64,000 nt of DNA from an uncultured Candidatus Saccharibacteria bacterium (GCA_964470995.1 CAYYEP010000004.1:2846-66845), one strand, 5' to 3'. Numbered from the stretch's first letter, positions 1-64,000 are shown. Notes: generated by a model from the sequence alone, not told the origin. Numbers and translations are program-made.

Positions 1-998
1 AATCTGAACAGCAAAATAATTTTGAAATACTATTAACATCCGATAAAATTTCTGAGGGCTTCAATCTTAACCGCGCAGGAATGGAGATTAATTACGATAT
101 TCCTTGGAACCCGGTGCGAGTTATTCAGAGATTGGGACGCATTAATCGCATAAGCAAGAAAGTTTTTGCAGACCTTTACATCGTAAATTTTTTCCCAACC
201 GAAAGAGGCGCAGAGTTAGTGAAGTCTCGCGAGATTGCAGCAAATAAAATGTTTCTTATACATACCGCTCTTGGCGAAGATTCAAAGATTTTTGATATTG
301 ACGAAGAACCAACGCCCGCAGGATTATTTAACCGTTTCAAGCAAAATCCAGATGAACAGGAAGGGGAGAGTTTTTACACTAAAGCGCTTAAAGAATTCTT
401 GAAGATAAAAAGAGAGCATCCTGAGATAATTGATAGTCTGAAAAACTATCCTCCAAGGATCAAGGTAGCCAAAAAATACAGAGAAGGCGAGCTATTGGTA
501 TTTTTCAAGAAAGGTCGTCTATACGTAAGCGCCGCCAAAGTTACCAACGATAAGATCGAGCCATATCAAACTACTTTTGAAGATACTTTCGATAAAATTG
601 TTTGTCTTCCAAACGAAGAATCTCTGGATTGGAACAATGAACAATTTTGGCAAGCTTATAGGGCAATCCAAGATTTCAAGGAGTACCGCTTGGGTCCAAT
701 CAGCGAACAAAGTCTTGAGCAGAAAGCGTTAAACAACCTCGATTCCCTTATAAAGAGTCCGCGGGAGGAGCTAATGCCGTTTAAGAGTTTTTTGCGCACA
801 CTTCGCGAAGATATTTTAGACTATGGAACATTAGTAGATTACACCTTGCGCCGTATTGCGGATTTTAGCGAGAATAGCATTAACGATATTCAAAATTTAT
901 TGAATGAACTGGGCGAAAATTATTTGATTACAGAAAAAAAATTACAGAAAGATCAGGAGAGGGAAATTATAATCGCGATTGAAAATCAAAAAATATGA
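1..998 (+). CDS. SNF2-family helicase, C-terminal part (5' end outside window)
   Basis: The frame is open from nt 3. The translation ...ILLTSDKISEGFNLNRAGMEINYDIPWNPVRVIQRLGRINRI shows helicase motifs V-VI with the SNF2-type D-x-P-W-N-P ... Q-R-x-G-R-x-x-R signature. The stop overlaps the next start (ATGA at 995-998). Confidence 0.8.
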   Translation, partial: SEQQNNFEILLTSDKISEGFNLNRAGMEINYDIPWNPVRVIQRLGRINRISKKVFADLYIVNFFPTERGAELVKSREIAANKMFLIHTALGEDSKIFDIDEEPTPAGLFNRFKQNPDEQEGESFYTKALKEFLKIKREHPEIIDSLKNYPPRIKVAKKYREGELLVFFKKGRLYVSAAKVTNDKIEPYQTTFEDTFDKIVCLPNEESLDWNNEQFWQAYRAIQDFKEYRLGPISEQSLEQKALNNLDSLIKSPREELMPFKSFLRTLREDILDYGTLVDYTLRRIADFSENSINDIQNLLNELGENYLITEKKLQKDQEREIIIAIENQKI

Positions 999-3900
999 GC
1001 CAAGCCCGCGAAATTTTGGAGGATATAATAAGAAATTTTTCACCCGAAAAATTTGGACGGTTCTTTCGCGAAAAAAGCCGTCATTTTGTTATCTTAAACG
1101 AAGAATATTCCTTTTGCGATGATATTGATTTTGAAAGCGGAATAAAATTAGGTGAAATTAATTTTCCCGATAGTGATAGTTTAATTATATGTAATTTTGA
1201 GATAAAGAAAGGACTTTCCGAGCGGGCTGGTAAAAAAGTGCAATATGAAAAAGCCAGGAATATTTTAAAACTTGTAGAAAACCAAAAATATGCTGGCGGG
1301 ATTTTCATTTTTCACGACAAAAATGGTAATTTCCGTTTTTCATTGGTATATCGCGAATCGGCGGGAACTCACCGGCAATGGAATAATTTTCGTCGCTTCA
1401 CCTATTTTGTAAGCAAAGACCTCACAAACAAAACTTTCCTACAAAGGATCGGAGAAGGTGATTTGGATTCATTGGATGATATTAAAGACTCTTTTTCGGT
1501 AGATAAAGTTACCAACAAATTTTTTGACGAATTTCGGCAAATATTTGATAAAACAAAACAAGAATTTGAGAAAACAAACAAAAATACCGTTTGCCTATGG
1601 TTAAAAGATAGATATTCGGATGATGATTATAGAGAGCAAATAAACAAATTTACTTTTACATTCTTGGGGCGCATAATTTTTCTTTACTTTTTGCTGCGTA
1701 AGGGCTGGATTGAGAACAAAAAAGATTACATTAGGAAGATAGTAGAAGATAAGAATCAGATAAATTTATATTTTAATATCTTCGAGCCGTTATTTTTTGA
1801 AGTATTCGCCAGGAAAGAGGATGAAAGAAGTCGGGAAATAAGGAGCAGCTATAAAGATACTCCATATCTCAATGGCGGGCTTTTTGAGCGAAGTGAAATA
1901 GAGGGCGCAATGCACAGAGCAGGAATTTCGGTTCTTTTCGAAGATAAATTTATTAGAGAAATAGTCCTCGAATTTTTTGAAGCATATAATTTTACTGTTG
2001 ATGAAAATTCGCCGGATGACCAAGAAGTGTCAATCGATCCGGAGATGCTTGGGAAGGTTTTCGAAAACACACTGGCAGAAGAAGAAAGAGGCAAAAAGGG
2101 TACTTTTTATACGCCAAGAGAGATAGTTCACTTTATGGTGAAAGACTCTTTATGGCAATATTTGAAAAACGAAACTGATATTAAACCAGAGCTATTGCAC
2201 GAGCTTATTTATCATGAAGATTTTGATTTAGATATTTTACCGAAAGATAAAATTCGCCAGATAGATACAATATTAGAAGGTATCAAAATTCTTGATCCAG
2301 CCGTAGGTTCGGCTGCTTTTCCGGTGGAAATGATGCAAGTCTTAGTGAAGATTCGCAAACGTCTTAATGTAAAGGTTGGAAACAATATTAATGAAGTTAC
2401 TCTTAAAAAGAGCTTCATTAAGAACAATTTATACGGCGTAGATATTGATCCTTCAGCAATAGAGATCGCCAAATTACGTTTATGGTTATCCTTGATTGTT
2501 GATTATGAAAAATCCGAGGCTGAACCGTTGCCTAATCTTGATTTTCAATTTCGGGTAGGAAATTCTTTGCAGGAAAAAATTGATGATGTAGATATCTTTG
2601 GGGAAAATAACTCAGGAATACAAGAATTATTCAAGAAAGAGTCTGATTATGAAAGAGTAAAGATTCGAATGATAGATATTAAAGATCAATTTTATACCGA
2701 AGACGAAGCTAAAAAAAGAAAACTTAAGAAAGAATTTGATAATCTTGAAAGGCAGTTAATAGAAAAGGCATTAACAAAGCACCGTCAAAGCTTAGACGCA
2801 CAATTAAAGAATTCGCATTTCGCAAAGATAGCAAAGGAAGTAGAAAAAACTATTGCCAAGATAAATCAATTAGAGCAAAAAATTAAGGACGGTACTTATA
2901 AGTTATTTAAACCCGACTTTCACTTCTCTGAAGTTTTTGATCGTAAAGACCAAAATAATAAGAAAATTGACGGCTTTGATATTGTTATTGGCAATCCTCC
3001 ATACGGAGTAAAGATCGAAGAAGATATTAAAGAATGGCATAGGCTTGGGAGCAAAGATAGTTACGGTGTATTTATTTCCACTGCCTTAAAAAGATTTTTA
3101 AGGCCCGGAGGTGTTTTGTCGTATATCGTTTCAGACACTTGGCTAACAATAAAAACGCACAAGCCTTTAAGAGAGCAAGTTTTGTCGAAACAACTACATA
3201 AAGTAATTCGTGTGCATCAAGATTGTTTTGAAGCAACGGTAAATGCTTGCATAGTTAGCTTAACAAATAAGCTTAATGATAATGGAAAATTATTAGGGGC
3301 AGACTTAACAAATATTTCAACCCGAAAGGAAGTTGAAGAAATGAGGAGTAAATTATATCATCTATCTGATTTTATTAATCAATCAACTCCCAAATTTGCG
3401 GTATATGAGTATGACCAAGATTTAATCAAAATAAATTCTAATATTCCTATCTTTATAGGAAGTCCGAAATTATTTTTGTTAATGAATGATACAACCTGTA
3501 AAATAAAAGAAAGGGAGGTTTGTGGTAAAAAAATAAAGGTAAGATGTATCAATTTCAATAATAAAATTATCGAGCTGGTTAGATTCGGCGACATATCAGA
3601 TGTAAGAGTGGGGTTGCAAACAGGGAAAAATAAGGCTTATCTCTTTCAAAATCAAAATACACGCGGTAGTTACCGCGACATTAATCATTTTAAAGAATTT
3701 CTTATAACAAGTGCCGATCTAAATAAAATCGTAAACAATGATGGATTGCGTTTAAAAATTATCTCGAAGGGATTTCATAAATCGATAAATGATAAAAGTT
3801 TCGATAGCGATCTATGGTTCAGTGGAAAATACATTATACCTTACGATAAGGGCGGAGAAAGCGACACTGAAACTGGCTGGCTACCAAATTATTATGTACC

Positions 3901-4426
3901 AACGGACTTTTTCATTGATTGGAGTTGTGAAGCAGTAAAAAATCTTTCAACAAACGAAAATGCTAGATTTCAAAATACTGATTATTATTTTAAAGATGGG
4001 CTTACCCTATCCTATACAGGTCAATATGCTCCAAACTTAAGATTAAATTCAACGAGTGTTTTTGATGTCGGTGGTTCCTGTATCTTCCCTGATATTGTCG
4101 ACAAGTACCAAATCCTCGGGAATTTTGTTTGTAAAATAACAAAATATTTTGGCAAAAATTGGATAGATCATTCGGTTAACTTTCAGATAGATGAAAATAA
4201 AGAGTTACCGATGTTAATTAGTGAGAATAAGGAAATTATCAATATTGTTCTTAAGATTATTAATGCTCAAAGGAAAAACTGCCGTTATGACTACATGTCC
4301 AACGAACAAAAAGAGATTGATAAATTAGTTTACAAAATGTACGGGCTGAATGCCGATGATATTAAGGAAGTCGAAACTTGGTATGCAAGACGTTATCCAA
4401 AGTTAGCAAGATTCTGCAATATTTAA
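995..4426 (+). CDS. Fused restriction-modification-type enzyme: N-terminal PD-(D/E)xK-like motif + gamma-class N6-adenine DNA methyltransferase (Eco57I/MmeI/PglX-like) + large C-terminal target-recognition region
   Basis: 1143 aa. It carries P58-D59-x9-E69-I-K71 (INFPDSDSLIICNFEIKK, nt 1166-1207), SAM motif I ILDPAVGSAAFP, FQFRVGNSL and catalytic motif IV DIVIGNPPYG. A C-terminal region of about 450 aa follows, as in type IIG/IIL enzymes. Confidence 0.8.
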   Translation: MSQAREILEDIIRNFSPEKFGRFFREKSRHFVILNEEYSFCDDIDFESGIKLGEINFPDSDSLIICNFEIKKGLSERAGKKVQYEKARNILKLVENQKYAGGIFIFHDKNGNFRFSLVYRESAGTHRQWNNFRRFTYFVSKDLTNKTFLQRIGEGDLDSLDDIKDSFSVDKVTNKFFDEFRQIFDKTKQEFEKTNKNTVCLWLKDRYSDDDYREQINKFTFTFLGRIIFLYFLLRKGWIENKKDYIRKIVEDKNQINLYFNIFEPLFFEVFARKEDERSREIRSSYKDTPYLNGGLFERSEIEGAMHRAGISVLFEDKFIREIVLEFFEAYNFTVDENSPDDQEVSIDPEMLGKVFENTLAEEERGKKGTFYTPREIVHFMVKDSLWQYLKNETDIKPELLHELIYHEDFDLDILPKDKIRQIDTILEGIKILDPAVGSAAFPVEMMQVLVKIRKRLNVKVGNNINEVTLKKSFIKNNLYGVDIDPSAIEIAKLRLWLSLIVDYEKSEAEPLPNLDFQFRVGNSLQEKIDDVDIFGENNSGIQELFKKESDYERVKIRMIDIKDQFYTEDEAKKRKLKKEFDNLERQLIEKALTKHRQSLDAQLKNSHFAKIAKEVEKTIAKINQLEQKIKDGTYKLFKPDFHFSEVFDRKDQNNKKIDGFDIVIGNPPYGVKIEEDIKEWHRLGSKDSYGVFISTALKRFLRPGGVLSYIVSDTWLTIKTHKPLREQVLSKQLHKVIRVHQDCFEATVNACIVSLTNKLNDNGKLLGADLTNISTRKEVEEMRSKLYHLSDFINQSTPKFAVYEYDQDLIKINSNIPIFIGSPKLFLLMNDTTCKIKEREVCGKKIKVRCINFNNKIIELVRFGDISDVRVGLQTGKNKAYLFQNQNTRGSYRDINHFKEFLITSADLNKIVNNDGLRLKIISKGFHKSINDKSFDSDLWFSGKYIIPYDKGGESDTETGWLPNYYVPTDFFIDWSCEAVKNLSTNENARFQNTDYYFKDGLTLSYTGQYAPNLRLNSTSVFDVGGSCIFPDIVDKYQILGNFVCKITKYFGKNWIDHSVNFQIDENKELPMLISENKEIINIVLKIINAQRKNCRYDYMSNEQKEIDKLVYKMYGLNADDIKEVETWYARRYPKLARFCNI

Positions 4427-4473
4427 ACGCGTTCTTATCCGAAGGATAAAAGATAACAAGAACAATTACGGAT

Positions 4474-6300
4474 ATGTATATAAAGGAGCTTTATATTAAG
4501 AATTTTCGTGGTGTAGAGGAATTGAATTTTGAATTTAAACCAGGAGTGAATGTATTGATCGGCAAGAATAATTCTTCAAAAACTGCACTCATTGATGCTA
4601 TTCGTCTTTGCCTTTCAGGAAAGAATCCAGACGGAAAGCGAGATATATGGTTTGATAAGGATAAGGATTTGAGAATTAATTTATTAAGCAAACCACCAAA
4701 AAGGGAAGAAGAATCTTTTTTTAAATTTATTTTAGGCTTTAATGCTTCCGAATTAAATGTCGCGGATAAGGAAGCATTAAGGGAGGCATCAAAAAAAGGC
4801 GAAGGCCAAAATCTTTTTGACGATTTAAAGATTAAATATACTGCTCCATATTTTCACCTAGCAAGTTTGAAAGACGGAGAAATAATATTTACAATTAATG
4901 TTCGTTATTACATCGAAAAAAGCACAGTTGATGGGCAAGAAAGAATAAAGAGTGAATTTTGGGTAGGCGATGATAAGCAACGATTGATTCCCCAGGAGAT
5001 GTGGGAATATTTTTATGTGGTCTATTTGCAGCCGTTAAGAGATGCTGTTGCTGCTTTGCAACCTCCTTATAGTAAATTAGGAGAACATTTTGAGTTTATT
5101 TCAGGAACAAAAAGTGAAAGGGATGAATTGGCCGAAAAAATTCATAAAAAAATGGATGAAGCTGATGGATGGAAAGCACTTAGACTAAAAGGGATGAAGA
5201 ATATAAACGAAGTTCATTTCCAGAACCTATTGGATGCTGACAACCAAGATCAAATAGACATCGGCTTTTTGCCATTTGATTTTCGTAGGATCGCGAATCA
5301 ACTTAGGATTAGATTGCCGTATGGCGAAAGCGCGACCAGGAAAGATAATGATTTCTTTGAATTAGATCAAAATGGACTGGGATACAATAATCTAATATTC
5401 GCTTCAACCGTACTGGCAAATATTGAAGAAAAGAAAAATGATAATATAAGTTCATTTCTACTCATCGAAGAACCCGAAGCTCATCTACATCCACAACTTC
5501 AAAATCAATTTTTCCAATACCTTAATGATTTAAGTAGCAGGGGTTATCAAATTTTTTTGACATCTCATTCTCCAACGATAACAGCAAAGGCCAATATAAA
5601 TAGAATTATAGTGTTGCAAGGCTTAAACCGTCAGGTATCCGTATGTCATATATCAAAGCTTAAACTTGAGGAAAGTGCAAAATTTTTGCATAAGTTTCTT
5701 GATGTTACTAAGTCTCAACTATTTTTTGCGAATGGCGTTATCTTCGTTGAAGGATATTCTGAAGCAATCTGCCTAGAGATATTTGCGAAGAGGCTAGGTT
5801 TTGATTTAGTTAGAGCAGGAATTGAGATCGTTAATATTCGCGGTGTTTCGTTTAGACATTTTCTTAAACTTTTTAACTGCGACAATGGATTGAAAAATCG
5901 TTTCGCAGTCATTACCGATAGAGATACAGACAAAGGAAAAAGTAAAGATCGGATTGAAAAATTGGAACGGATGATAAAGGATAATTCAAATGGAATAATA
6001 GCCGTATCTGGTCAAACTAATTTTGAAGCAGAGCTTTATACCTCGGAAAATAGAACTGCTATCGATGGGATTTGGCAAAATATAAGGCCAGAAGCTGGAG
6101 GCAAAGACATTGAATATTTTAAAGATGATCCCCAAAAGTTTGCAGAGAAAGTTAACGACCTCGATTTGAAAACTGAATTGGCGTTTAATTTATCAGAAAC
6201 ACTTCAAGATCATAGAAATAGTTTCGTAACTCCGAAATACATCGAAGAAGCAATACGTTTTGTGATAACAGGAAATAAAGATGAGCCTAAGACGGCCTAG
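4474..6300 (+). CDS. gajA: OLD-family ABC-type ATPase + Toprim nuclease (Gabija GajA-like, class 2 OLD)
   Basis: 608 aa. Walker A is GKNNSSKT. Walker B and H-loop are LLIEEPEAHLHPQLQ ... FLTSHSP. The Toprim glutamate context is GVIFVEGYSEAI and the DxD is AVITDRDTD. A UvrD-type helicase gene follows immediately. Confidence 0.8.
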   Translation: MYIKELYIKNFRGVEELNFEFKPGVNVLIGKNNSSKTALIDAIRLCLSGKNPDGKRDIWFDKDKDLRINLLSKPPKREEESFFKFILGFNASELNVADKEALREASKKGEGQNLFDDLKIKYTAPYFHLASLKDGEIIFTINVRYYIEKSTVDGQERIKSEFWVGDDKQRLIPQEMWEYFYVVYLQPLRDAVAALQPPYSKLGEHFEFISGTKSERDELAEKIHKKMDEADGWKALRLKGMKNINEVHFQNLLDADNQDQIDIGFLPFDFRRIANQLRIRLPYGESATRKDNDFFELDQNGLGYNNLIFASTVLANIEEKKNDNISSFLLIEEPEAHLHPQLQNQFFQYLNDLSSRGYQIFLTSHSPTITAKANINRIIVLQGLNRQVSVCHISKLKLEESAKFLHKFLDVTKSQLFFANGVIFVEGYSEAICLEIFAKRLGFDLVRAGIEIVNIRGVSFRHFLKLFNCDNGLKNRFAVITDRDTDKGKSKDRIEKLERMIKDNSNGIIAVSGQTNFEAELYTSENRTAIDGIWQNIRPEAGGKDIEYFKDDPQKFAEKVNDLDLKTELAFNLSETLQDHRNSFVTPKYIEEAIRFVITGNKDEPKTA

Positions 6301-8044
6301 CGAAAAACAACAACATATAATTGATAGTATTCGCTCTAATAAAGGGAAATTTATTATTAGAGCTTGTCCTGGAAGCGGAAAAACATTTACCGTTGCCAGC
6401 CTTTTTTGTGGTGAACTTAGAGAATGGAATAACCGCGGCGAGGGGATTGCAGTGGTCTCTTTTACGAATGTTGCACATCAAGAGATTCATCAAAAAATTG
6501 AAGAAATAATGGGGAGCCGTCTTTCTTTAGGGTATCCTCATTTCATAGGGACAATTGATTCTTTTTTAAATCAAAATATTTTTTTACCATTTGGTTGCGA
6601 ATCAATGGAGTATACTTCCAGACCAAAACTCGTTGGAAGACCACATGGCGAATGGCATTATCTACCAGGGATTAAATGGTCAAGTTATTTTGAATATATT
6701 AACTATAAAATTGATGGATCGTTTGAGAGTATAGATTGCAGAATGGCCGGTATCGATAGTGCCGTTGAAAAGAAGAATAGAGCAGATATCATTAATGCGA
6801 AAAAATTAGTAAATAAATCTGGATTTGCCACCCAGAGCGATGCGAACTATTTTTCCTATAGAACATTAGCTAATAATCCAAAACTCTCTAAGTTAATCGC
6901 GACGAGATATCCTTACCTTTTAATTGATGAAGCCCAAGATTCGACCGAAATACAAATGGCTATAATCGATATATTAATAGCGAATGGATTGAAAAAAATA
7001 GTGCTTGTTGGCGATCCGGATCAAGCAATATTTGAATGGAATAATGCAAAACCAAAGTTGTTTGAGGATAAATTTAAAAATGACGGGTGGAAAAACTTTA
7101 AGTTAGATGAAAGCTACAGAAGCTCGGCTAATATTTGCAAATTTGCTTCAAAATTTAGAGGTGGTGAAGGATTCAGTCCTTCGGATTTGTGTGATTCTAA
7201 AGATTGTTCATTTATGCCTTGCTTTAAATCTTATGAGGATAGCAAAGATATCCAAAGCATAAAGAATGAATTTAAAGATATTTGTTTGAGAGAAAAGATT
7301 GATTTTGCATCGAAAGCGACGGCAATTTTATATAAAGCTTCAACTGATTTACCGGTATTAAATAACTGCGAAGATAAAGATAGCGGAAAGGTGAATAAGA
7401 AAAAAAAGTACATTGACTGGGGAAAATGTAAATTGCCTTATACACAAGATTTATGTAAAGCGAAATATTTATTTGATTACGGCAATTTTGAACAATCTGG
7501 AAAATTATTTATTGATGTTGTCTCCAAAAAGAAGTACAAAAAGGCAACTTTAAATGCGGAACAAATAAATCAAATCATTTTAGGCTATGGGGGTAAAATG
7601 AATCTCTTTATAAAAGGCATTAACGTATTAAATGAATTATCTCCAATTAGCAATAAGAAAATTTCAGACTGGATCAAAGAAAACGGTAGTTATTTCCCAG
7701 GAGAAGACTTAAATTTGTTTGGAGATAACGTTTTTGATGACATTTTTTCTTATGGCAAACCTCAAACAATAGACGAAAAATTACCTTTGTATTCAACGAT
7801 ACACGGAGTGAAGGGAAGAACTTTTGATGCGGTTTTAGTATATTTAAAAAGTAAAGTAAAAGACGGAAAAAATTTCATTACTTATTTGAAAGATGGCTAT
7901 TTGTTATCCGACGAGAAAATGGAAGCCATGCGGATTGTTTACGTTGCAATTACCAGGCCTCGTAAAATACTAATGCTTGCTGTTCCCAAAAAAGATATAG
8001 ATTTCTGGAAAAATTATTTTAAAAGCACAATACCGTCAGAATGA
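6281..8044 (+). CDS. gajB: UvrD/PcrA/Rep-type superfamily 1 helicase (Gabija GajB-like)
   Basis: 587 aa. Motifs seen: ACPGSGKTFT (Walker A), LLIDEAQDS (motif II), VGDPDQAIFEW (III), SYRS (IV), TIHGVKGRTFDAV (V), VYVAITRPRKIL (VI). It overlaps gajA-like by 20 nt. Confidence 0.8.
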   Translation: MSLRRPSEKQQHIIDSIRSNKGKFIIRACPGSGKTFTVASLFCGELREWNNRGEGIAVVSFTNVAHQEIHQKIEEIMGSRLSLGYPHFIGTIDSFLNQNIFLPFGCESMEYTSRPKLVGRPHGEWHYLPGIKWSSYFEYINYKIDGSFESIDCRMAGIDSAVEKKNRADIINAKKLVNKSGFATQSDANYFSYRTLANNPKLSKLIATRYPYLLIDEAQDSTEIQMAIIDILIANGLKKIVLVGDPDQAIFEWNNAKPKLFEDKFKNDGWKNFKLDESYRSSANICKFASKFRGGEGFSPSDLCDSKDCSFMPCFKSYEDSKDIQSIKNEFKDICLREKIDFASKATAILYKASTDLPVLNNCEDKDSGKVNKKKKYIDWGKCKLPYTQDLCKAKYLFDYGNFEQSGKLFIDVVSKKKYKKATLNAEQINQIILGYGGKMNLFIKGINVLNELSPISNKKISDWIKENGSYFPGEDLNLFGDNVFDDIFSYGKPQTIDEKLPLYSTIHGVKGRTFDAVLVYLKSKVKDGKNFITYLKDGYLLSDEKMEAMRIVYVAITRPRKILMLAVPKKDIDFWKNYFKSTIPSE

Positions 8045-55068: not shown

Positions 55069-58000
55069 ATGCCTTACGATCCAAAAAAAAGTTTGATATT
55101 CCGTGGGGTTGATTATGTGCGGTTTATCCCGGCGGGGGCAATAGGTTTGGTTAAAAAAATAAACCAGGCGGTTTTGGCGGCAGTTTTTGTTTTTTGGGGA
55201 GCATTGGCGGCAATATTAAATTTTATGCCGGGATTGGGGGTGAGTTTGGGGCTTGACGCGCGCGCGGCGGCCGAATTGGGAGATTTTTTTTGGGGAGCAG
55301 GATTGGTATCGTTGGCGATGGTTATGGGGGCAAATCTGGTGCTTGGTTTTACGCGCCAGCGGTTAATGAGTTTTGGCAGGATAATCGAAGACGGGGTTTT
55401 ATTAGATGATAATTATCTTGAATATTTGGATTTTGAGGCGGCGCGCGTGTTTAAAATAACAATGGAGCGGGCCGGTGCGCCTTTTGCAACCGGCCTTTTG
55501 GAAAACATCATTAAGGGTCGCAAACTGGATTTTTCGATGCGCCGGCTTTGTATTGACGGGGCGTTTTTTGAAAAGATGGCGCGGGATTCGCTTAAAGAAC
55601 AGATGAAAGATGATTCGCCGCAAGCAAAAGCGGGTTTAAGCAACGATAACGCCAATAAAATTGAAGCGGTTCTAATCAGTGCGATTGACTTGGCGCGCCG
55701 CAACCAAGAGAAGAAGATCTCGATTTTTATACTTTTTTTGAGTTTAATGGAGATTGAACCCGCGTTTAAGGCGATATTGGATAAATATGAATTGTTGGAA
55801 GAGGATGTGGAATCGACGGTTGTGTGGCAAATGCGCATGGAAGCGTACCGCCGATGGCGCCAGCGGTATTGGGAGCGGGATAATTTGCGTTTGGCGCTGG
55901 CGTTTAAGCCGGTAGCGAGCTTGATCGGGGGCTATACGGTAACGTTGGATCAATATAGCCGCAATTTATCGGCGCATAATCCGTTGCGCCAGGGAGGGGT
56001 GGTATTGCATCAAAAGGAAATCGAAGAGCTGGAAGGAATGCTTTGCAAAGAGAATGGCAACGGGATATTGCTGGTGGGTGAAATGGGTTGCGGTCGTAAA
56101 AGCATTGTTCACAATTTTGCCAATCGGGTTGCCAGAGAGAACAGTTCGGGCGATTTGAAGATGTTGCGGATATTAGAATTGGATATGGTGGCGCTGATCG
56201 GTGCTTATAGCAATCGGGCTCATTTGGCGGCGGTGCTTGAAACAATATTTATGGAAGCGGTTAAGGCTAAGAATGTGGTGCTGGTGATCCCCCAGATAAA
56301 TAACTATTTTGGCGGTAAATACGGAACCGAAAAAATGGTGGCCGCGGATATCAGCGGCGTAATCAGCCAGTTTCTGAAAATAAAGGGGTTTCGTTTGATT
56401 GGCATTACCACCTACGAAGGATTGCACGGGTCGATTGAGCCCGCGGCCGATGCGGCGGCGCTTTTTACAAAGATTGAGGTAGCACCAGCGGGATCGGCCG
56501 ATGCGATACGCGTTTTAAAAGAGCTAAGCTTGCGGCTGGAAAAGAAAAATAGGTTGTTTATTCCGATAACCACTTTAAAAGAGATAGTTAAACTTTGTGA
56601 TTACTTTTTGGGTGACCGGGCGTTTCCGTTAAAGGCGGTTAATCTTTTGGATGAGGTGATTGCCAACAAAATGAGCCATCCGGGCATTTTACGGGCGATT
56701 ATGCCTGGAGATATAGATATGTTTTTCTCGCGTAAATATGAGGTGCCGGCCGGGATAGCGGGTGTTAAAGAAAAGGAAATTTTGCTTAATCTTGAAGATC
56801 ACATTCATGAAGGATTGATCAACCAAAAAGAAGCTGTGGAGGAATTGGCTAACGCATTGCGACGGGCGCGGGCTGAGATCAAGAAGCGCAAACGAACAAT
56901 TGGTAATTTTCTGTTCTTGGGGCCGACGGGAAGCGGTAAAACCGAGACGGCTAAACAGCTGGCGCGGGTTTATTTTGGGTCGGAGAAAAATATGATCAAG
57001 CTTAATATGGCCGAATATCAGACGGCGGAATCAATCAATAAGCTGTTGGGAAGCGCGGGGACGGCGGGGTTGCTGACTACGGCGGTGCGGGAAAATCCGT
57101 TTTCGCTTATTTTAGTTGATGAAATTGAAAAGGCTGATAAGGGGGTACTTGATCTTTTTTTGAACATTTTTGACGAAGGCGAACTGGCCGACGGTATGGG
57201 TAAGATTGTCGATTTTCGGCATACGATAATCATTGCGACATCGAATGCGGGTGCCGAGTACATCAAGGAAGCGGTGGAGCGCGGCAGTACGATGCGGAAT
57301 CTTAAGGATACAATGCTGGATAACCTGATGCGGCGCAATGTTTTTAAGCCGGAATTTTTGAATCGTTTCGATGCGATTGTGCTTTACAGGCCGTTGAACC
57401 GCGAAGAAATGAAACAGGTGGCCGGATTAATGGTCAAGGATATTAAGGACAGATTGCGCGATAAGCGGATCGAGCTGGTGGTGACCGATGAATTGTTGGC
57501 GGGTCTTGGCAAGATCGGATTTGATCCGGTATTCGGCGGCCGGGCAATGCGCCGCGCGGTACAGGATAAGATTGAAAACGCAGTGGCGCGGGCGTTGTTG
57601 CTGGAGAGGATAAAATCGGGAGATATTTGCGAGTTTGATCCAAAAAGCTGGGAATTGCTGGTAGGGGAGGAACGACGCAAACATTATGACAATAATGTTA
57701 ATGTCGTTGAAGGAGATGATCCGATTGCAAAGATATTGTTGCGGCTGGAGGACCGTATCCATGAGGGGTTGATCGACCAAGAAGAAGCGGTTAAGGAATT
57801 GGCTAATGCATTGCGACGGGCGCATGCTAATTTGAAAGAGCGAAAACGTACAATTGGCTGTTTCCTTTTTTTGGGGCCGACGGGGTGCGGAAAAACCGAG
57901 ACGGCTAAACAGCTGGCGCGGGTGTATTACGGTTCGGAGAGTAATATGGTTCGTTTGGATATGGCCGAATACCAGACACCCGATTCAATCGAGAAGTTGA

Positions 58001-58647
58001 TTGGCAACATTCAGACACCGGGATTGCTGACGACCCGGATAATAGAGAATCCGGATTCTTTAATCCTGATTGATGAGATTGAGAAATCAATTCCACAGGT
58101 ATTGAATATTTTTTTAAGCGTGTTCGATGACGGCCAATTATCCGACGGTATGGGACAGGCAGTAGATTTTACGAATACGATTATTGTTGCCACTTCTAAT
58201 GCGGGTGCCGAGTACATTAAGGAGGCGGTTCAAAAGGGAATATATCTGGACGGCAAGTTTAAGCGGAATTTTTTAGATTATCTTCTTGGGCGGGGAGTAT
58301 TTACGCCGGAATTTTTGAATCGTTTCGATGCCGTATCGCTTTACCGGCCGTTGAATGCCAAGCAAATGAGACAGGTGGCCAGTTTGATGTTGGGCGATAT
58401 CAAAAAAGGGTTGGCGCTCAAGGGTATCCGGCTTGAGACGGGAAACGAATTGTTGGATAAATTGGTACAAATCGGATTTGATCCGGTATTCGGCGGCCGG
58501 GAAATGCGGCGGACGGTGCAGGATAATGTTGAAAACGCGATTGCCACCGCTTTATTGTCGCGTTCGATCCGCGGGGGGGATGTTGTGGAAATCGACCCTT
58601 ATACGTGGCAGGCGGTAGTGGTAGGCAAGACCGCTGAAGGAAAATAA
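55069..58647 (+). CDS. Membrane-anchored Clp/Hsp100-like AAA+ protein with degenerate D1 and two tandem D2 modules
   Basis: 1192 aa. N-terminal TM helices are followed by Clp_N-like repeats. D1 has GEMGCGRKS in place of GxxGxGKT and VLVIPQINN in place of hhhhDE. D2a (from aa 571) has GPTGSGKT, LILVDEIEKA, ATSNAG and FGGRAMRR. D2b (from aa 889) has GPTGCGKT, LILIDEIEKS, ATSNAG and FGGREMRR. Confidence 0.8.
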   Translation: MPYDPKKSLIFRGVDYVRFIPAGAIGLVKKINQAVLAAVFVFWGALAAILNFMPGLGVSLGLDARAAAELGDFFWGAGLVSLAMVMGANLVLGFTRQRLMSFGRIIEDGVLLDDNYLEYLDFEAARVFKITMERAGAPFATGLLENIIKGRKLDFSMRRLCIDGAFFEKMARDSLKEQMKDDSPQAKAGLSNDNANKIEAVLISAIDLARRNQEKKISIFILFLSLMEIEPAFKAILDKYELLEEDVESTVVWQMRMEAYRRWRQRYWERDNLRLALAFKPVASLIGGYTVTLDQYSRNLSAHNPLRQGGVVLHQKEIEELEGMLCKENGNGILLVGEMGCGRKSIVHNFANRVARENSSGDLKMLRILELDMVALIGAYSNRAHLAAVLETIFMEAVKAKNVVLVIPQINNYFGGKYGTEKMVAADISGVISQFLKIKGFRLIGITTYEGLHGSIEPAADAAALFTKIEVAPAGSADAIRVLKELSLRLEKKNRLFIPITTLKEIVKLCDYFLGDRAFPLKAVNLLDEVIANKMSHPGILRAIMPGDIDMFFSRKYEVPAGIAGVKEKEILLNLEDHIHEGLINQKEAVEELANALRRARAEIKKRKRTIGNFLFLGPTGSGKTETAKQLARVYFGSEKNMIKLNMAEYQTAESINKLLGSAGTAGLLTTAVRENPFSLILVDEIEKADKGVLDLFLNIFDEGELADGMGKIVDFRHTIIIATSNAGAEYIKEAVERGSTMRNLKDTMLDNLMRRNVFKPEFLNRFDAIVLYRPLNREEMKQVAGLMVKDIKDRLRDKRIELVVTDELLAGLGKIGFDPVFGGRAMRRAVQDKIENAVARALLLERIKSGDICEFDPKSWELLVGEERRKHYDNNVNVVEGDDPIAKILLRLEDRIHEGLIDQEEAVKELANALRRAHANLKERKRTIGCFLFLGPTGCGKTETAKQLARVYYGSESNMVRLDMAEYQTPDSIEKLIGNIQTPGLLTTRIIENPDSLILIDEIEKSIPQVLNIFLSVFDDGQLSDGMGQAVDFTNTIIVATSNAGAEYIKEAVQKGIYLDGKFKRNFLDYLLGRGVFTPEFLNRFDAVSLYRPLNAKQMRQVASLMLGDIKKGLALKGIRLETGNELLDKLVQIGFDPVFGGREMRRTVQDNVENAIATALLSRSIRGGDVVEIDPYTWQAVVVGKTAEGK

Positions 58648-58721: not shown

Positions 58722-60359
58722 ATGGGAAATTTACCAAACAAAATTAAAACTACGCAATTCATCTTCCTGGCAATTACGGCGGTTTTAGGTTTGGCGGCGG
58801 TTTTCGGCCGCGCGGCGGCAGAGTCATGTTCCGCTGATGATCCTTGCGGTTTTGGGAAAATTTGCTTTAACGGCAAATGCGCAGACAGCGGCAGTGTTGA
58901 TTGTACTAACCACAGCCAAATGGAATGTTATGATAATGATGTGTATTGGTACGATTCGTGCGGTACGCGCGAGGAAAAGTCCAAAGACTGCGGAGAGGAT
59001 TCTTATCTGACGGAATATCAGTGCAGTTCAACTATGGCACAACAGGGAGTGATTGCGCGAGGTTGCGATAAGGGTGAATGCCAGGAAGTGAGGGGCTGGA
59101 TTGATCTTCAAAATTGCGATGACACGGGGTTGGTTTGCCGTGACGGCGCCTGCCGGGCCGGAGATGCAACACCGCCGTTATTGTATTCTCTTTTGCCTTC
59201 GGGAGAAGTGAATTCTTCCCGGGTGGTGTTGTCGCTGGCCACTGATGAGAAGGCGGAGTGCCGGTATAGTTATTATGACGTAGGTTATGACCAAATGGGG
59301 ATGAAATTCGCCACAGGCGACGGCATACGTCATTCGGTGGCGACAAATTTGGCCGCCCCGGGAAATTATATTTTTTATGTGCGTTGCCGGAACGGGGCGG
59401 GAAACGTTAATCTGGTATCAAATAAAATATCATTTTCCTATGTTTTGGATTTAAAAAAAACAAATTCCGCGGAAATGACGGCTGTAGGCCAGGATTTAAC
59501 ACCGCCCGCAATATCGGCGTCAAGCCTAAAACCGTCCGGAAAAGTTTATACCGCAGTCGTGGAACTTTCATTGGTGACCGGCGAGAAGGCAAATTGCCGT
59601 TACGATACCCGGGATTTAATTTACGCGTCGATGACGAGCAATTTTAATCGCGACACGGGCGGGACCGTCCATTATAAAGCAGTAACCTTGCCTGGATCGG
59701 GGAGTTACGCGTATTATGCAAGGTGCCGGGACACCGCCGGAAATGAAAGTAATTCGTCGGCGGTTATTGAGTTTGAATATGCCGGAGATTCAACTAGCGG
59801 TTTATTAATTTCGGATACAAAGCCAGCTGGCGCTATTTATCAAAAGACGGTGGCATTGGAAGCGGTTACAGACAGCACGGCGATATGCCGTTATTCGGCA
59901 ACTGAAACTGATTTTGAATCGATGGTTGATGAATTTTCTTCAATTAACGGCGTGCAGCATCTGGCAGTGGTTACTTTGGATGATTTTGGCGATTATAATT
60001 TCAGTGTTGCGTGTGTCGGCGATGGCGCGCGGGATAAAAACGGAACGGCGCATATAGTTTTCCAGTATAAGGATTCGAATGGGATGGGAGCCGCGGTGCC
60101 GGAACCGGTCAAATGCGATAATGCGGTTTTGGGTAAAAGCGACGGGATTTGCGAAGCCATTGCCGATTGCGTATGCGATCCTGATTGCGGCGGCCAGGAT
60201 TCTGATTGCGCCAAAATTCAAGATAATAAGAAGATCGGCGTTCCGGTTTTGGGTTTGGCGGCGGCGGTTATTGCGGGGTTGGCGGGCGTTTATATGGTGA
60301 GAAAAAGGGCCGGAGGAAGATCGGAAGATTCCGGCGAGGACGATTCTTTGGGATTGTAA
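58722..60359 (+). CDS. Cys-rich surface protein with three ~95-aa repeat modules and C-terminal TM anchor
   Basis: 545 aa. It has a signal peptide and a Cys-rich N-terminal region. The repeats carry the paired motifs AECRYS...YVRCRNGAGN, ANCRYD...YARCRDTAGN and AICRYS...SVACVGDGAR. The C-terminus is VLGLAAAVIAGLAGVYMVRKR. Confidence 0.65.
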   Translation: MGNLPNKIKTTQFIFLAITAVLGLAAVFGRAAAESCSADDPCGFGKICFNGKCADSGSVDCTNHSQMECYDNDVYWYDSCGTREEKSKDCGEDSYLTEYQCSSTMAQQGVIARGCDKGECQEVRGWIDLQNCDDTGLVCRDGACRAGDATPPLLYSLLPSGEVNSSRVVLSLATDEKAECRYSYYDVGYDQMGMKFATGDGIRHSVATNLAAPGNYIFYVRCRNGAGNVNLVSNKISFSYVLDLKKTNSAEMTAVGQDLTPPAISASSLKPSGKVYTAVVELSLVTGEKANCRYDTRDLIYASMTSNFNRDTGGTVHYKAVTLPGSGSYAYYARCRDTAGNESNSSAVIEFEYAGDSTSGLLISDTKPAGAIYQKTVALEAVTDSTAICRYSATETDFESMVDEFSSINGVQHLAVVTLDDFGDYNFSVACVGDGARDKNGTAHIVFQYKDSNGMGAAVPEPVKCDNAVLGKSDGICEAIADCVCDPDCGGQDSDCAKIQDNKKIGVPVLGLAAAVIAGLAGVYMVRKRAGGRSEDSGEDDSLGL

Positions 60360-60431
60360 TCGCAGATAGTATCGCTATTTCCGTATGTCGGGTGCCATGC
60401 TAAAATTATTATATTTGTAATTCAAATTAAA

Positions 60432-61403
60432 ATGGATATCATCGATGAATTAAAGAAGGCGAATTTAAAAGGAAGAGGCGGCGCGGGGTTTCCTGCGTGG
60501 CAAAAGTGGCAGATGGTAAAAGATGCGCCGGGCGAAACCAAATATGTTGTTTGCAATGTGTCCGAAGGCGAGCCGGCGGTGGCCAAGGACGGCCACATTC
60601 TGGAAAAATGGCCCGATATTGTGGTTGAGGGGATTGAATTGGCGATGAATGAAGCGGGAGCAAAAAAGGGTTATTTATATTTGCGCCGGGATTATTTTGA
60701 TAAGTTTAAAAATGCGCTGGCCGAAATTATCGGCGCACGGGCGATAAAAATCATCCGCGAACCGGGCGGGTATCTGGGCGGCGAAGAAACCGCGCTGTTG
60801 GATTCCATTGAAGGAAAAGCCGTGGAGCCGCGGATCAAGCCGCCGTTTCCGCCTCAAGCGGGTCTTTGGGGCTGTCCCACTTTGATCAATAATTTGGAGA
60901 CCTTGTATTTTGCGGCAAGGATTGTCTGCGGCGAATATAAAAATACGCGCTTTTACACCATTGCCGGCGATTGCGCTTGCCCGGGAGTGTTTGAGCGGAG
61001 CGAAAGCTTGACAATCAAGGAAATTTTGGAAAAGACCGGCAATCTGCCGCAATTCAAATTTTTTGTGCAGGCCGGGGGCGGTGCCAGCGGCACCATTATG
61101 TTATCGGATGAATTGGAGGTTCCTTTGTCCGGCGCGGGATCAATCGTGATCTATGACAAAGCCAAAACCGATCCGCGGCAGTTGGGGTTGAAATGGATAA
61201 ATTTTTTCATCAACGAGAATTGCGGCAAGTGCGTTCCCTGCCGCGAAGGCGTTTATCGCCTGCGCGAGATTTTTTCAAAAGAGCCGCTTGACATTGCCCG
61301 GGCGCAAAGCATCGTCAAGCTGCTGGCGGTGGCCAGCTTCTGCCCCTTTGGCAAAGGCGTCGCGAATTCTTTTGGCAGTTTGTTGGAAAAAATAATCAAA
61401 TGA
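60432..61403 (+). CDS. NuoF/HydB-like flavoprotein subunit (FMN + 4Fe-4S), short form
   Basis: Motifs GRGGAGFPAWQKW, VCNVSEGEP, GEETALLDSIEG, PPFPPQAGLWGCPTLINNLET and NCGKCVPCREG. Confidence 0.8.
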   Translation: MDIIDELKKANLKGRGGAGFPAWQKWQMVKDAPGETKYVVCNVSEGEPAVAKDGHILEKWPDIVVEGIELAMNEAGAKKGYLYLRRDYFDKFKNALAEIIGARAIKIIREPGGYLGGEETALLDSIEGKAVEPRIKPPFPPQAGLWGCPTLINNLETLYFAARIVCGEYKNTRFYTIAGDCACPGVFERSESLTIKEILEKTGNLPQFKFFVQAGGGASGTIMLSDELEVPLSGAGSIVIYDKAKTDPRQLGLKWINFFINENCGKCVPCREGVYRLREIFSKEPLDIARAQSIVKLLAVASFCPFGKGVANSFGSLLEKIIK

Positions 61404-61786
61404 ATTATAAAGGCGTAATAATAGAAGAAAGCCTTGAAAATAAGGATATTTTAGATAAAATATCGATCTTAGCGACAAAAAAGGAAATTGTTACGGAAAA
61501 GCACAAAACTCCTTGGATAAGACAGTGGACGCTCCATACAGTGGAAATTGATTTGGATTCAGCGGAAGAAATTGCGCGCGAAATAAGCAAGTCGTTGGAT
61601 TCAATCCATGATTGGTATGCGGATTTCAAAAATGACAAATCCCATTATGTTGTTTTCAGGAATAAAGTTTTTAAAATCGATTTGGCAAAGCCAAAGTATC
61701 GGGACGCGATCGAATACGGGGTAAAACATGGAATTCCTTGGTATCAGCTTGATTTTTCGCCGGAAATAGAAGAATGGAAACGGTAA
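61400..61786 (+). CDS. Hypothetical protein (AT-rich insert)
   Basis: 128 aa. Its start overlaps the upstream stop (ATGA). No recognised motif. Confidence 0.45.
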   Translation: MNYKGVIIEESLENKDILDKISILATKKEIVTEKHKTPWIRQWTLHTVEIDLDSAEEIAREISKSLDSIHDWYADFKNDKSHYVVFRNKVFKIDLAKPKYRDAIEYGVKHGIPWYQLDFSPEIEEWKR

Positions 61787-61794
61787 TTTATTTT

Positions 61795-62297
61795 ATGAAA
61801 TCCAAAGAAAATAATTATGCGTTTATTGACAGCCAGAATTTGAATCTTGGGGTGAGAAGTCAGGGGTGGTTTTTGGATTTTTTAAAATTTCGCGTTTATT
61901 TGGCGGAAAAATATGGCGTGAAGGTTGCTTATTTGTTTATTGGCTATATTCAAAAAAATCAAGATTTGTATTCCAGTTTGCAAAAATGCGGTTATGTTTT
62001 AATCTTTAAACCGACATTGCCTGAGGGGATGGCAACATTAAGGGCAATGTTGATGCTGATTTGGTACTGCAAACGATGATTGAATTTCAAAATTACGATA
62101 AGGCCGTGATTATTTCCAGCGATGGCGATTTTTATTCGTTGGTTAAATATCTTTATGAGCATAATAAATTACGCGTGGTTATTAGTCCGTATCATAAAAC
62201 TTGTTCGTTATTGTTGAGGCAGTCGGCGAGAGAAAAAATGGTATTTATTGATAATTTGCGCCAGAAATTGGAATATACAAAAAACACCGCCAAATGA
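61795..62297 (+). pseudogene. NYN/LabA-like (PIN-fold) nuclease-domain gene interrupted by a frameshift at a G4 run
   Basis: Frame 1 gives NYAFIDSQNLNLG...VLIFKPTLPEG. The -1 frame continues from nt 62028 as DGNIKGNVDADLVLQTM...VIISSDGDF. The junction is at gagggga (62023-62029), and one extra G would restore a single ORF. Confidence 0.6.
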
Positions 62298-62387
62298 CGG
62301 AACATTTAGAGGTGTTTTTTATGTGAATTCTATTATAATTGTAGCAGTTTAATTTTTTTTGTCAAGCATAAATTTGGGACATGATAA

Positions 62388-62467
62388 TTAACGAAAAAAT
62401 ATGAAAATAACAATTGATAATCGGGAGGTGGAAGCAAGGGAGGGGCAGACAATATTGGAGGCGGCGC
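62388..62467 (+). repeat. 80-bp direct repeat, upstream copy
   Basis: It matches 63325-63404 at 78 of 80 positions (mismatches at 62411 and 62412). It covers 13 nt of leader plus the first 22 codons of the NuoG-like gene. Confidence 0.95.
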
Positions 62468-62484
62468 CGAAACTTTGCCGGTGA
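62401..62484 (+). pseudogene. Vestigial 5' fragment of the NuoG/hydrogenase-like gene
   Basis: The fragment MKITIDNREVEAREGQTILEAAPKLCR* compares with MKIIIDNREVEAREGQTILEAARENG... at 63338. Confidence 0.7.
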
Positions 62485-62688
62485 ATTTCAGCATTGTCAG
62501 AGCCCTTTCCTTAAAAGACCGGTTGCTGGTTTCTTCGCTTGCCCGCCTGCTCGCGGTCGGAATCGGAAGTTTGTGTTGGATAAAACTGAACAGCTACCGG
62601 AAATTCGCTTTTTATATTCCCTTGGATGTTGTATGATTGCAGTAATAATAATATTTTTCCGAATAGATAAGGAAAAATAATAAAGATT

Positions 62689-63138
62689 ATGTTAGGACCT
62701 GAAAATTGCATGGGAAGCGCCCCGTTGGAAGACATGGAAGAGGAATCGTTGAAAGAGGCGAAGGATAAGATGAGAGACGAAATAGTTTCCGAAGGTTTTG
62801 AAAAAGTCGAAATTTTCGGAAGCGAGGAGCCGATAGATCTATATGTTATCAGATTAAAATCACCCTACAAATGTACGGGGATAGACGGTAAGGAAGAAGT
62901 GAGATATATGGCTGATGCGATGATAGGTTTTAATGAGGAGCAAGCACGCAGATATGCGAGCCATACGGCGTTAACCAGGGAGGCTAATCACTGTGGCATT
63001 CTGGACGACGGCACGATCAAGCCATTCATGAGTCTAAGAAGTCTTCGGGAAGAACAAGAGAACTTTGAGAGGGAAAAAGCGAAACAAGACGAAATTGATC
63101 GGAAACAAAGCAATGCCGCGGAAAGGTTTGTCAAGTAA
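62689..63138 (+). CDS. Hypothetical acidic protein carried between the 80-bp repeats
   Basis: 149 aa with no recognised motif, followed by a 14-bp-stem hairpin. Confidence 0.5.
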   Translation: MLGPENCMGSAPLEDMEEESLKEAKDKMRDEIVSEGFEKVEIFGSEEPIDLYVIRLKSPYKCTGIDGKEEVRYMADAMIGFNEEQARRYASHTALTREANHCGILDDGTIKPFMSLRSLREEQENFEREKAKQDEIDRKQSNAAERFVK

Positions 63139-63208
63139 ATTTTTTGCCAAAAAATATTTCTGTCGCGCAAGGGCGCAATAACGGATGAAAGAAAGGGGTA
63201 TATTTCTC

Positions 63209-63240
63209 AACCAAAATCCGCCGAAAGGCGGATTTTGGTT
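63209..63240 (+). terminator. Strong hairpin / probable terminator
   Basis: aaccaaaatccgcc-gaaa-ggcggattttggtt (perfect 14-bp stem), followed by a T-rich tract. Confidence 0.55.
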
Positions 63241-63324
63241 CGACTTTGTTTATTTTCGGCAATATAGTATAAAGGAATTATGAGCTGGCTTCGGAAGTTT
63301 TGCGCAAAAATATAGATGCGGTTT

Positions 63325-63404
63325 TTAACGAAAAAATATGAAAATAATCATTGATAATCGGGAGGTGGAAGCAAGGGAGGGGCAGACAATATTGGAGGCG
63401 GCGC
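63325..63404 (+). repeat. 80-bp direct repeat, downstream copy
   Basis: See 62388-62467. This copy is continuous with the intact gene. Confidence 0.95.
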
Positions 63405-64000
63405 GGGAGAACGGGATTGAAATTCCGGCATTGTGTTATCATCCGGATCTGTGCGTGAAGGCAAATTGCCGGATGTGCGTGGTGGAGATTGAGGGGGTGG
63501 CGGCTCCACAGGCGGCCTGTGCGACAAAGATAAAAGAGGGAACGAAAGTGGTCACGCAAAGCGAAAATTTGACGGCGTTGCGCAAAAGCAATTTGGAATT
63601 GCTTTTGGGTCAGCATCGGCGCGATTGCGCCAAATGTATTTGGCAGGGCAAGTGCGCGCTGTTGAAATACGCGCTGGAACTGAAAGTTGATTTGAATGCC
63701 TATCCACTGCGCAATCCCGAGCCCGAAATTATCAAATTCGGGCCGATCATTCTTGACCGGTCAAAGTGCATCAATTGCCGCAATTGCGTGGATATGTGTT
63801 CGCGCCAGACCGGTTCCAAACGCGGGAACGAGGCTGAGTGCAAATCTGACGGCTTTTTGGAATTGGAAGGGCGGGGATATGAAAGCCGGATTTCGCCTTC
63901 CGCGGATGAGAAAAAAGATTGCATTTATTGTGCCCAGTGCGTGGTGCACTGCCCGGTGGGCGCGCTGGATGTGGAAAGCGCGGTGGAGGCGGTGGACGCG
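63338..64000 (+). CDS. NuoG/[FeFe]-hydrogenase-type iron-sulfur subunit, N-terminal part (3' end outside window)
   Basis: This ORF is not in the ORF track because it is open to the window edge. The translation MKIIIDNREVEAREGQTILEAARENGIEIPALCYHPDLCVKANCRMCVVEIEG is 2Fe-2S ferredoxin-like. It is followed by CAKCIWQGKC, CINCRNCVDMC and CIYCAQCVVHCP cluster motifs. Confidence 0.8.
   Translation, partial: MKIIIDNREVEAREGQTILEAARENGIEIPALCYHPDLCVKANCRMCVVEIEGVAAPQAACATKIKEGTKVVTQSENLTALRKSNLELLLGQHRRDCAKCIWQGKCALLKYALELKVDLNAYPLRNPEPEIIKFGPIILDRSKCINCRNCVDMCSRQTGSKRGNEAECKSDGFLELEGRGYESRISPSADEKKDCIYCAQCVVHCPVGALDVESAVEAVDA

Follow-up and report, generated by a model that had tools for sequence, protein, structure and literature searches.

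The nuoF-hydA junction of an uncultured Candidatus Saccharibacteria bacterium: a probable recombination-prone slot for accessory genes

The DNA analysed here, a stretch of 64,000 nucleotides referred to as the window (positions are counted from its first letter), comes from an uncultured Candidatus Saccharibacteria bacterium (GCA_964470995.1, CAYYEP010000004.1:2846-66845) and carries near its 3′ end the two genes of a hydrogenase module, nuoF and hydA, separated by a spacer of 1,934 bp (61404-63337). The spacer has 38.2% G+C, against about 51% in its flanks. An earlier note, made from the sequence alone, had described an AT-rich spacer of about 1.9 kb between a NuoF-like and an Fe-S gene, and this description is borne out down to the position of each element; its single-line counts are also reproduced (26.7% G+C at 61441-61500 and 58.3% at 61321-61380). 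The lowest 1-kb composition window at the locus has 34.3% G+C, compared with a minimum of 38.4% elsewhere (509 such windows from outside the locus and beyond the first 8.5 kb of the stretch; mean 46.5%, standard deviation 2.8). In order, the spacer contains p128, a gene for a 128-aa protein; a broken NYN-domain gene; an inverted repeat; a promoter-like site; a copy of the start of hydA; 187 bp of unexplained origin; a 34-bp leader; p149, a gene for a 149-aa protein that occupies the position referred to below as the slot gene; a hairpin; and a weak promoter-like site. Its composition is uneven, with 34.6% G+C in the p128 and NYN half and 42.1% in the p149 part. Expressed as overall G+C and G+C at third codon positions (GC3), p128 stands at 0.37/0.38, NYN at 0.32-0.36/0.37-0.41, p149 at 0.44/0.47, and native genes of the window at 0.41-0.53/0.43-0.65. 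The genes p128 and NYN are thus compositional outliers.

The upstream member of the pair (60432-61403, + strand) encodes a NuoF-family flavoprotein of 323 aa, a HydB-like partner of the hydrogenase, which matches Pfam Complex1_51K (1.3e-33) and NADH_4Fe-4S (7e-12) as well as the NCBIfam nuoF family (1.5e-62, under the equivalog cutoff). The downstream member (63338-64000, + strand) continues past the end of the window, so that its first 220 codons are read here. These encode Fer2_4, NADH-G_4Fe-4S_3, and Fer4 domains, an N-terminus of the type common to NuoG and HydA, and the H-cluster domain was judged from an orthologue of 582 aa in the related genome L002 (92% identity over the first 220 aa). 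This orthologue carries Fe_hyd_lg_C (1.5e-87) and Fe_hyd_SSU, scores 453 bits against NCBIfam FeFe_hydrog_A (cutoff 406), and exceeds the TIGR02512 cutoff; the best NCBIfam model for the hydrogenase is that of group A6, below its own cutoff (671 vs 765 bits). Since the 582-aa orthologues of relatives carry the H-cluster domain, the downstream gene, as judged from them, is hydA of a group A [FeFe]-hydrogenase rather than nuoG, and the pair is not part of complex I. The label given in the earlier note, NuoG/hydrogenase-like, therefore holds in its second half and not in its first. No NuoE/HydC-like gene was seen adjoining the pair, and the upstream neighbor encodes a 545-aa protein with weak matches to Ig-like domains.

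Related loci were obtained from a flavoprotein scan of GTDB species genomes, which yielded Patescibacteria metagenome-assembled genomes at 40-91% identity, and the proteins of the window were mapped onto them. The expectation that the two genes are normally adjacent partners is confirmed. They are linked in 24 of the 24 closest loci, being either adjacent or separated only by variable cargo, and lie 0-65 bp apart in 11 (L007, L010-L013, L015-L017, L022-L024). Because the pair is linked in relatives and adjacent in these 11 loci, the spacer is best regarded as derived DNA. About 12 other loci contain different cargo at the same junction: NYN alone (L001, L005), a 177-aa orphan (L003, L004), a p149 relative (L006), several unknown open reading frames (ORFs; L008), a 717-aa TPR protein (L014), DUF4186 (L019), or a UPF0259-like membrane protein (L020, L021). 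L002 and the near-identical L090-L092 and L095 have the whole structure of the window plus a Y1-transposase-like gene, and in a lineage about 20% diverged (L097-L099) the order is nuoF, p128, an internally deleted NYN, and hydA. As far as synteny can tell, the nuoF-hydA junction is an insertion hotspot.

The first gene of the spacer, p128 (61400-61786, + strand), begins within nuoF, its ATG overlapping the nuoF stop codon (ATGA), and this overlap makes its translational coupling to nuoF probable. The encoded protein, about 130 aa long throughout its family, has relatives in more than 1,867 clusters, which are 63-80% identical across Patescibacteria classes and share 22 invariant residues; the function of the family is unknown. 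The protein has no Pfam, NCBIfam, PADLOC, or PHROG match, and its AlphaFold2 (AF2) model (pLDDT 88) gave no significant fold match in the PDB, nor was there a PDB sequence match. At the nuoF-hydA junction p128 is present in L002 and L097 and absent in L001 and L005. Homologues outside these lineages lie in unrelated contexts that lack the hydrogenase and have the G+C content of their own hosts, whereas p128 in the nuoF-hydA lineages is about 10 points below its host, a difference which suggests acquisition from a lower-GC relative. By the divergence of its copies this acquisition is not recent, since those of the window and L097 are 79.5% identical and thus about as diverged as their flanks (83%). 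No p128 was found in viral contigs. A toxin-antitoxin pairing of p128 with NYN was considered and rejected, as each gene is found without the other.

Beyond p128 lies the NYN-domain (PF01936) nuclease gene (61795-62297, + strand), which reads as two ORFs (61774-62079 and 62061-62297). Relative to the intact orthologues in L001, L002, and L005, one base has been lost at about 62024 (GACGGGGAT to GAGGGGAT), and this 1-nt deletion splits the domain, leaving it without an uninterrupted frame in the window. The repaired protein (167 aa) scores 50.2 bits against PF01936 (cutoff 24.2), and the C-terminal fragment alone scores 25.6 bits. The window copy would accordingly be an inactive pseudogene, and decay of NYN at this junction is seen elsewhere too, as an internal deletion in L097 and as a remnant of about 25 nt in L096. 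NYN genes are AT-rich relative to their hosts in all six cases examined, and each lies only a few bases from where a conserved gene stops; this gene is nuoF or, in the case of a paralogue, GAPDH. This second NYN paralogue (43-51% identity; L001 14671-15183, L003 15216-15728, L004 16265-16702) starts 1-2 nt past the GAPDH stop codon in L001 and L003, and L002 lacks it at that place. On this evidence NYN genes seem to settle repeatedly, and variably, at the 3′ ends of conserved genes. No partner gene or defense-system architecture was found around NYN. Overlapping its stop codon is a terminator-like inverted repeat (62279-62320) with 18-nt arms that are 89% complementary, followed by a T-run.

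The next segment ties the spacer to genomes without a slot gene. This interval, 62298-62387, shares 97.8% identity with the sequence preceding hydA in L001 and can be aligned with L012 and L097; by this likeness, the promoter-like site within it (TTGTCA-18-GATAAT, 62359-62388, + strand, a consensus match) is the native hydA leader of such genomes. It leads directly into the first copy of an 80-bp direct repeat, DR1 (62388-62467, + strand), which is a vestigial copy of hydA from -13 to +67. The functional copy, DR2 (63325-63404, + strand), comprises the ribosome-binding region of hydA and its first 22 codons. The two copies agree at 78 of 80 positions and are the sole near-identical repeat of this kind in the 64-kb window. 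To its left DR1 is contiguous with L001-like sequence; to its right it opens a 27-codon ORF (62401-62484) that ends inside unrelated DNA. The vestigial start of the downstream gene reported earlier is therefore present, though as a precise 80-bp duplication that would mark a recombination joint, and not as a decayed gene copy. A weak gapped protein match to residue 33, which might have extended the copy past 80 bp, was taken as chance.

The 187-bp segment that follows (62468-62654) has about 50% G+C and is 100% identical in L002. No ORF is supported within it, Rfam gives no match, and the fold of 62505-62654 (z = +1.1) does not indicate a structured RNA. A wider Rfam scan of 60000-64000 returned only sub-threshold matches, located on the terminator hairpin described below.

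Downstream of this segment, the slot gene is preceded by a leader and ribosome-binding region (TTTTCCGAATAGATAAGGAAAAA...ATG, 62655-62688, + strand) conserved in L003, L004, L006/L093, L094, and L096. The gene itself, p149 (62689-63138, + strand), is a lineage-specific, fast-evolving orphan. A word-indexed search found only the L002 copy, and a metagenome search for further loci returned only the L002 strain. An exhaustive phmmer search of 1.84 billion cluster representatives gave three at E <= 0.001, P0001 (99%), P0122 (42%), and P0123 (31%), the genes of which all lie directly upstream of hydA. The nuoF side of a p149 relative can be read in L094, the sole contig reaching far enough, and there the gene lies directly downstream of nuoF. 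No relatives of p149 were found in other genomic contexts. The protein has no Pfam, NCBIfam, PADLOC, or PHROG match, and its AF2 model (pLDDT 77) has no match in the PDB. Because its relatives occupy the nuoF-hydA gap too and share its leader and terminator, and because its GC/GC3 values are in the native range, p149 is, by this comparison, a resident of the junction and not a foreign gene. The proposal of foreign cassettes thus survives only in part, for the compositional outliers p128 and NYN, and not for p149. Nor were the intervening genes inserted as a recent block, given that p128 and NYN occupy the same junction in the diverged L097 and NYN alone does so in L001 and L005.

What is conserved across the genomes with p149 relatives and L003, L004, and L096 is a frame around the slot gene, namely the leader TTTTTCCGAAAAAATAAGGAAAAAATA and the opening ~20 codons on one side and the terminator hairpin on the other. 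The body of the gene in L003, L004, and L096 is an unrelated sequence of 174-177 aa, and BLASTP found no similarity between p149 and the 177-aa L003 protein, the common part being the leader and the first ~20 residues. These N-terminal residues, compared at 62689-62750 of the window and from L003 9212, L004 9068, and L094 172 onward, pair across body types: those of p149 resemble L004 (177-aa type), and those of P0123 (p149 type) resemble L003 (177-aa type). This pairing suggests recombination inside the slot gene, just past the conserved cysteine-containing N-terminal segment. The 177-aa slot gene of L004 (9068-9606) appears split into ORFs of 61 and 89 aa and may be a pseudogene. In neighbor-joining trees of NuoF and of HydA, the window, L001, and L002 form a clade to which the slot-gene lineages are sisters.

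The intrinsic-terminator-like hairpin downstream of p149 (63209-63240, + strand, fold prediction) has a perfect 14-bp stem and a GAAA loop, and the segment around it (63195-63260) folds at -26.3 kcal/mol (z = -5.1). It is kept at the same position in L003, L004, L093, and L096, and a different hairpin takes its place in L094. Immediately beyond lies a weak promoter-like site ahead of hydA (TCGACT-17-TATAGT, 63240-63268, + strand, 9/12 consensus match), and the corresponding position in sister lineages carries TTGCAAT-17-TAGAAT or TAGTAT. Such an arrangement should stop transcription before hydA, which would then be read from its own predicted promoter. The earlier suggestion that the spacer possibly uncouples expression of the pair is not supported as a consequence special to this locus, since the sequences of sister lineages show the same arrangement of terminator and promoter-like site ahead of hydA; the spacer would not newly uncouple the two genes.

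Comparison with the two closest genomes resolves the window into parts of different affinity. Positions 61793-62467 are 96% identical to L001 8964-9639, and 63325-64000 are 92.6% identical to L001 9560-10235, so that the window equals L001 plus a p128 insert of about 400 bp and an 857-bp block bracketed by the 80-bp repeat. This block differs from L002 at three positions (99.65% identity), whereas the adjacent hydA is 77-95% identical to L002, and the spacer between NYN and hydA is 77-79% identical to L002 and 97.8% to L001. L001 could be derived from a window-like ancestor through recombination between DR1 and DR2. At the two variable sites of the repeat (ACA/ATC and A/G), the window has ACA/A in DR1 and ATC/A in DR2, L002 has ATC/G in DR1 and ACA/G in DR2, L092 has ATC/G in both, and L001, with its single copy, has ACA/A. 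The distribution of these alleles appears to show continuing exchange between strains and between the two repeat copies. A diversity-generating retroelement was rejected, there being no reverse transcriptase in the region and the two differences between the repeats (ACA vs ATC) not being adenine-specific. Separately, a 137-bp patch of hydA (63588-63724) is about 79% identical to both L001 and L002, the preceding 260 bp being 98.5% identical to L001, and a similar patch lies in NYN (62158-62252). Both patches look like short mosaic tracts brought in by recombination with an unsampled relative.

These observations are best accommodated, with a probability of roughly 0.6, if the junction is a recombination-prone slot for accessory genes that is remodelled by homologous and illegitimate recombination, and not the site of an autonomous mobile element. 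Two spacer haplotypes would circulate among close relatives. Type A would consist of nuoF, an optional p128, an optional NYN, the short native hydA leader, and hydA. In type B, nuoF and hydA would enclose a self-contained slot gene, of the p149 family or with the unrelated 177-aa body, that has a leader and a terminator of its own. The window would then hold the two haplotypes in tandem: a type-A segment, broken off 67 nt into hydA, would be joined to a type-B segment, and this joint would have left the 80-bp duplicate of the hydA start. Incoming related DNA could recombine through a homology anchor in nuoF or hydA on one side and an illegitimate join on the other, by homology-facilitated illegitimate recombination (HFIR) or, equivalently, by a single crossover of a circular intermediate, and gene conversion between the two repeats would follow. 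In such an arrangement the orphaned type-A promoter would precede the 27-codon ORF and possibly p149.

Support for this reading comes from three independent scars that are alike in form: where a swapped segment ends, part of the end of a conserved gene is present in duplicate. The first is the repeated hydA start in the window and L002. The second, in L002, is a 113-bp duplicate of the nuoF 3′ end (80% identity), which is decayed and frameshifted and lies next to p128 and beside the Y1 insert. The third is in L096, where the interval between nuoF and the slot gene (1815-2290) holds a remnant of the NYN start, a remnant of the type-A hydA promoter, and a vestigial 132-bp nuoF 3′ end; this interval, by its content, is the apparent fossil of an earlier haplotype swap. 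Recombination of related DNA is favored because such gene-end scars recur and because the window has no recombinase, terminal inverted repeats, short target duplication, or second copy. No recombinase or transposase was found in Pfam, NCBIfam, PADLOC, and PHROG scans of p128 and p149, no terminal inverted repeats were found at the boundaries of the block, where the flanking repeat is 80 bp of the target gene, and neither the p149 leader nor its hairpin has a second copy in the window. A transposon, insertion sequence element, or integron-type cassette was rejected on these grounds, given the lack of a transposase or recombinase, of terminal inverted repeats or an attC-like site, and of multiple copies. 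The insertion of foreign cassettes proposed in the earlier note thus found no counterpart in mobility machinery when the window was scanned. Y1_Tnp occurs only in L002 and near-identical strains, as a separate insert: a 252-aa HUH/Y1 transposase-like gene (L002 8966-10096; PF01797, 27.6 bits) between nuoF and p128.

Several points weigh against this interpretation. The 187-bp segment at 62468-62654 has no homologue beyond L002 in blastn and tblastx searches against all fetched loci and the window, or in viral contigs, and as this segment forms the right side of the illegitimate joint, there is no parental sequence in which to look for microhomology. Type A may have entered a type-B genome, or type B a type-A genome. 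Gene conversion at a later time, and not the original joint, may have set the left edge of the repeat (-13), and the stretch over which the block is nearly identical to L002 stops close to the repeats, a pattern that a discrete excisable unit would give as well. Furthermore, the promoter and terminator calls are consensus matches only.

Such a unit is the strongest competitor, though on balance it is unlikely. The 857-bp block with p149 and one copy of the 80-bp repeat could be an excisable cassette that forms a circle, spreads between strains by Campbell-type integration into the hydA start, and is lost again when the repeats recombine. Window and L002 agree at 99.65% of the positions of the block amid flanks of 77-95%, and the repeats lie at or close to the limits of this high-identity tract. 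Relative to L002, DR1 and DR2 of the window have exchanged their ACA/ATC alleles, as crossovers at different points would predict, and L001 resembles the product of a repeat-by-repeat deletion. However, the cassette encodes no recombinase, genes of the p149 family occupy the junction in lineages without any repeat and are found nowhere else, and the A/G site of the repeat requires an additional conversion step if integrations were independent. Divergent flanks alone could also restrict homologous exchange to the conserved 80 bp.

Less probable still is that the spacer genes are functional additions to the hydrogenase, with p149 and perhaps p128 acting as lineage-specific accessory or regulatory subunits under selection. 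The exclusive association of the p149 family with hydA in four independent lineages would fit such a role, as would the overlap of p128 with the nuoF stop codon, suggestive of translational coupling, and the strong purifying selection implied by the conservation of the p128 family across classes (63-80% identity). Yet p149 evolves much faster than HydA (42-46% identity to the L006/L093-type relative, compared with 85% for the first 220 aa of HydA), is swapped for an unrelated body in L003, L004, and L096, and is absent from L001, L012, and most other relatives. The homologues of p128 outside the lineage group lie in unrelated contexts with no hydrogenase, and neither protein has Fe-S or other recognizable cofactor motifs.

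A more speculative proposal, held at similarly long odds, is that the slot is polymorphic under diversifying selection. The conserved leader, the ~20-residue N-terminus, and the terminator would frame interchangeable bodies swapped by recombination, the repeat would make the block reversibly excisable, and in these episymbiotic Patescibacteria the slot protein would either modulate the [FeFe]-hydrogenase in a strain-specific way or act as a self/non-self factor.

The architecture of the window has been recovered in independent NCBI, JGI, and ENA assemblies (L002, L090, L091, L095) and in the 98.6%-identical strain L092, and because of this recovery it can be regarded as real and not an assembly artefact. 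It is accordingly very improbable that the tandem arrangement is a metagenome assembly chimera of two strain haplotypes joined at the shared 80 bp: both haplotypes occur in nature and the repeat approximates a k-mer or read length, but at least five independent assemblies, which differ in sample and pipeline, show the same architecture, as does L092 with its own single-nucleotide polymorphisms, and the window represents a further lineage without the Y1 insert.

The locus is a further, well-documented example of a recombination-scarred accessory hotspot, an ordinary variable spot, and understanding of hydrogenases and of mobile elements is unchanged by it. Its value is as a cleanly resolved case in which a conserved redox module of two genes is remodelled in uncultured Patescibacteria with small genomes; intermediates are kept in relatives, and the scars speak for recombination with related DNA and not for transposons. 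Two protein families that have not been studied also come to notice, the very widespread and highly conserved ~130-aa p128 family and the tiny orphan family of p149, linked exclusively to hydA.

Two other features of the window are recorded here. Positions 1-8044 form a second AT-rich island (33-38% G+C, GC3 0.28-0.39) with four large genes on the + strand, encoding a 1,143-aa Eco57I/MmeI-type restriction-methylase, a 608-aa OLD-family AAA_15/TOPRIM ATPase, a 587-aa UvrD-like helicase, and a 305-aa protein of unknown kind. The ATPase and helicase resemble a Gabija-like pair, and the island looks like a defense island. At 55069-58647, the gene of a 1,192-aa Clp/AAA+ protein is internally duplicated in tandem, with a period of 954 bp and 75-82% identity (repeats at 56791-57275 and 57745-58229). 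The duplication adds an extra AAA_2 and ClpB_D2-small module, and the long form is also found in L004, L008, and L010.

The elements of the junction can each be set beside a known system. Like HydABC and other group A NADH-linked or bifurcating [FeFe]-hydrogenase modules, the pair has a NuoF-like gene directly upstream of the HydA gene, and its HydA has the N-terminal 2Fe-2S/4Fe-4S ferredoxin-like region; it differs in the short flavoprotein (323 aa) at the window locus. The NYN gene resembles the NYN/LabA-like PIN-fold nucleases (PF01936) in that its repaired ORF exceeds the gathering threshold and would encode a small stand-alone protein. Unlike these, the window copy is frameshifted, and decay has occurred independently in L097 and L096.

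With respect to rearrangement, Campbell-type single-crossover integration shares with the window an insert between near-identical copies of the target sequence and the redistribution of alleles between these copies, and recombination between the repeats restores a single copy, as in L001. However, no circular form, replicon, or recombinase is known for the block, and 80 bp of homology is short. The scars of HFIR offer a closer parallel. HFIR was defined and described in naturally competent bacteria (PMC3240628), and natural competence has been shown in Saccharibacteria, a Patescibacteria group, in organisms other than that of the window (PMC10633639). HFIR has been invoked for arrays of orphan gene ends, such as the orphan immunity and effector ends of the Vibrio cholerae type VI secretion system (T6SS) and the Rhs and contact-dependent inhibition (Rhs/CDI) loci (PMC5361080). 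The anchors at the junction differ from these in being metabolic genes (a flavoprotein and an [FeFe]-hydrogenase) and no part of a toxin system, effector-immunity logic is lacking in the cargo of orphan or NYN genes, and the mechanism is one inferred here from scars. Despite these differences, T6SS and Rhs/CDI arrays and the nuoF-hydA junction have in common that new DNA stands beside a conserved anchor gene (here nuoF and hydA, which flank every variant of the spacer in all relatives), that truncated or duplicated ends of conserved genes are left behind, and that successive events would build arrays with no dedicated recombinase.

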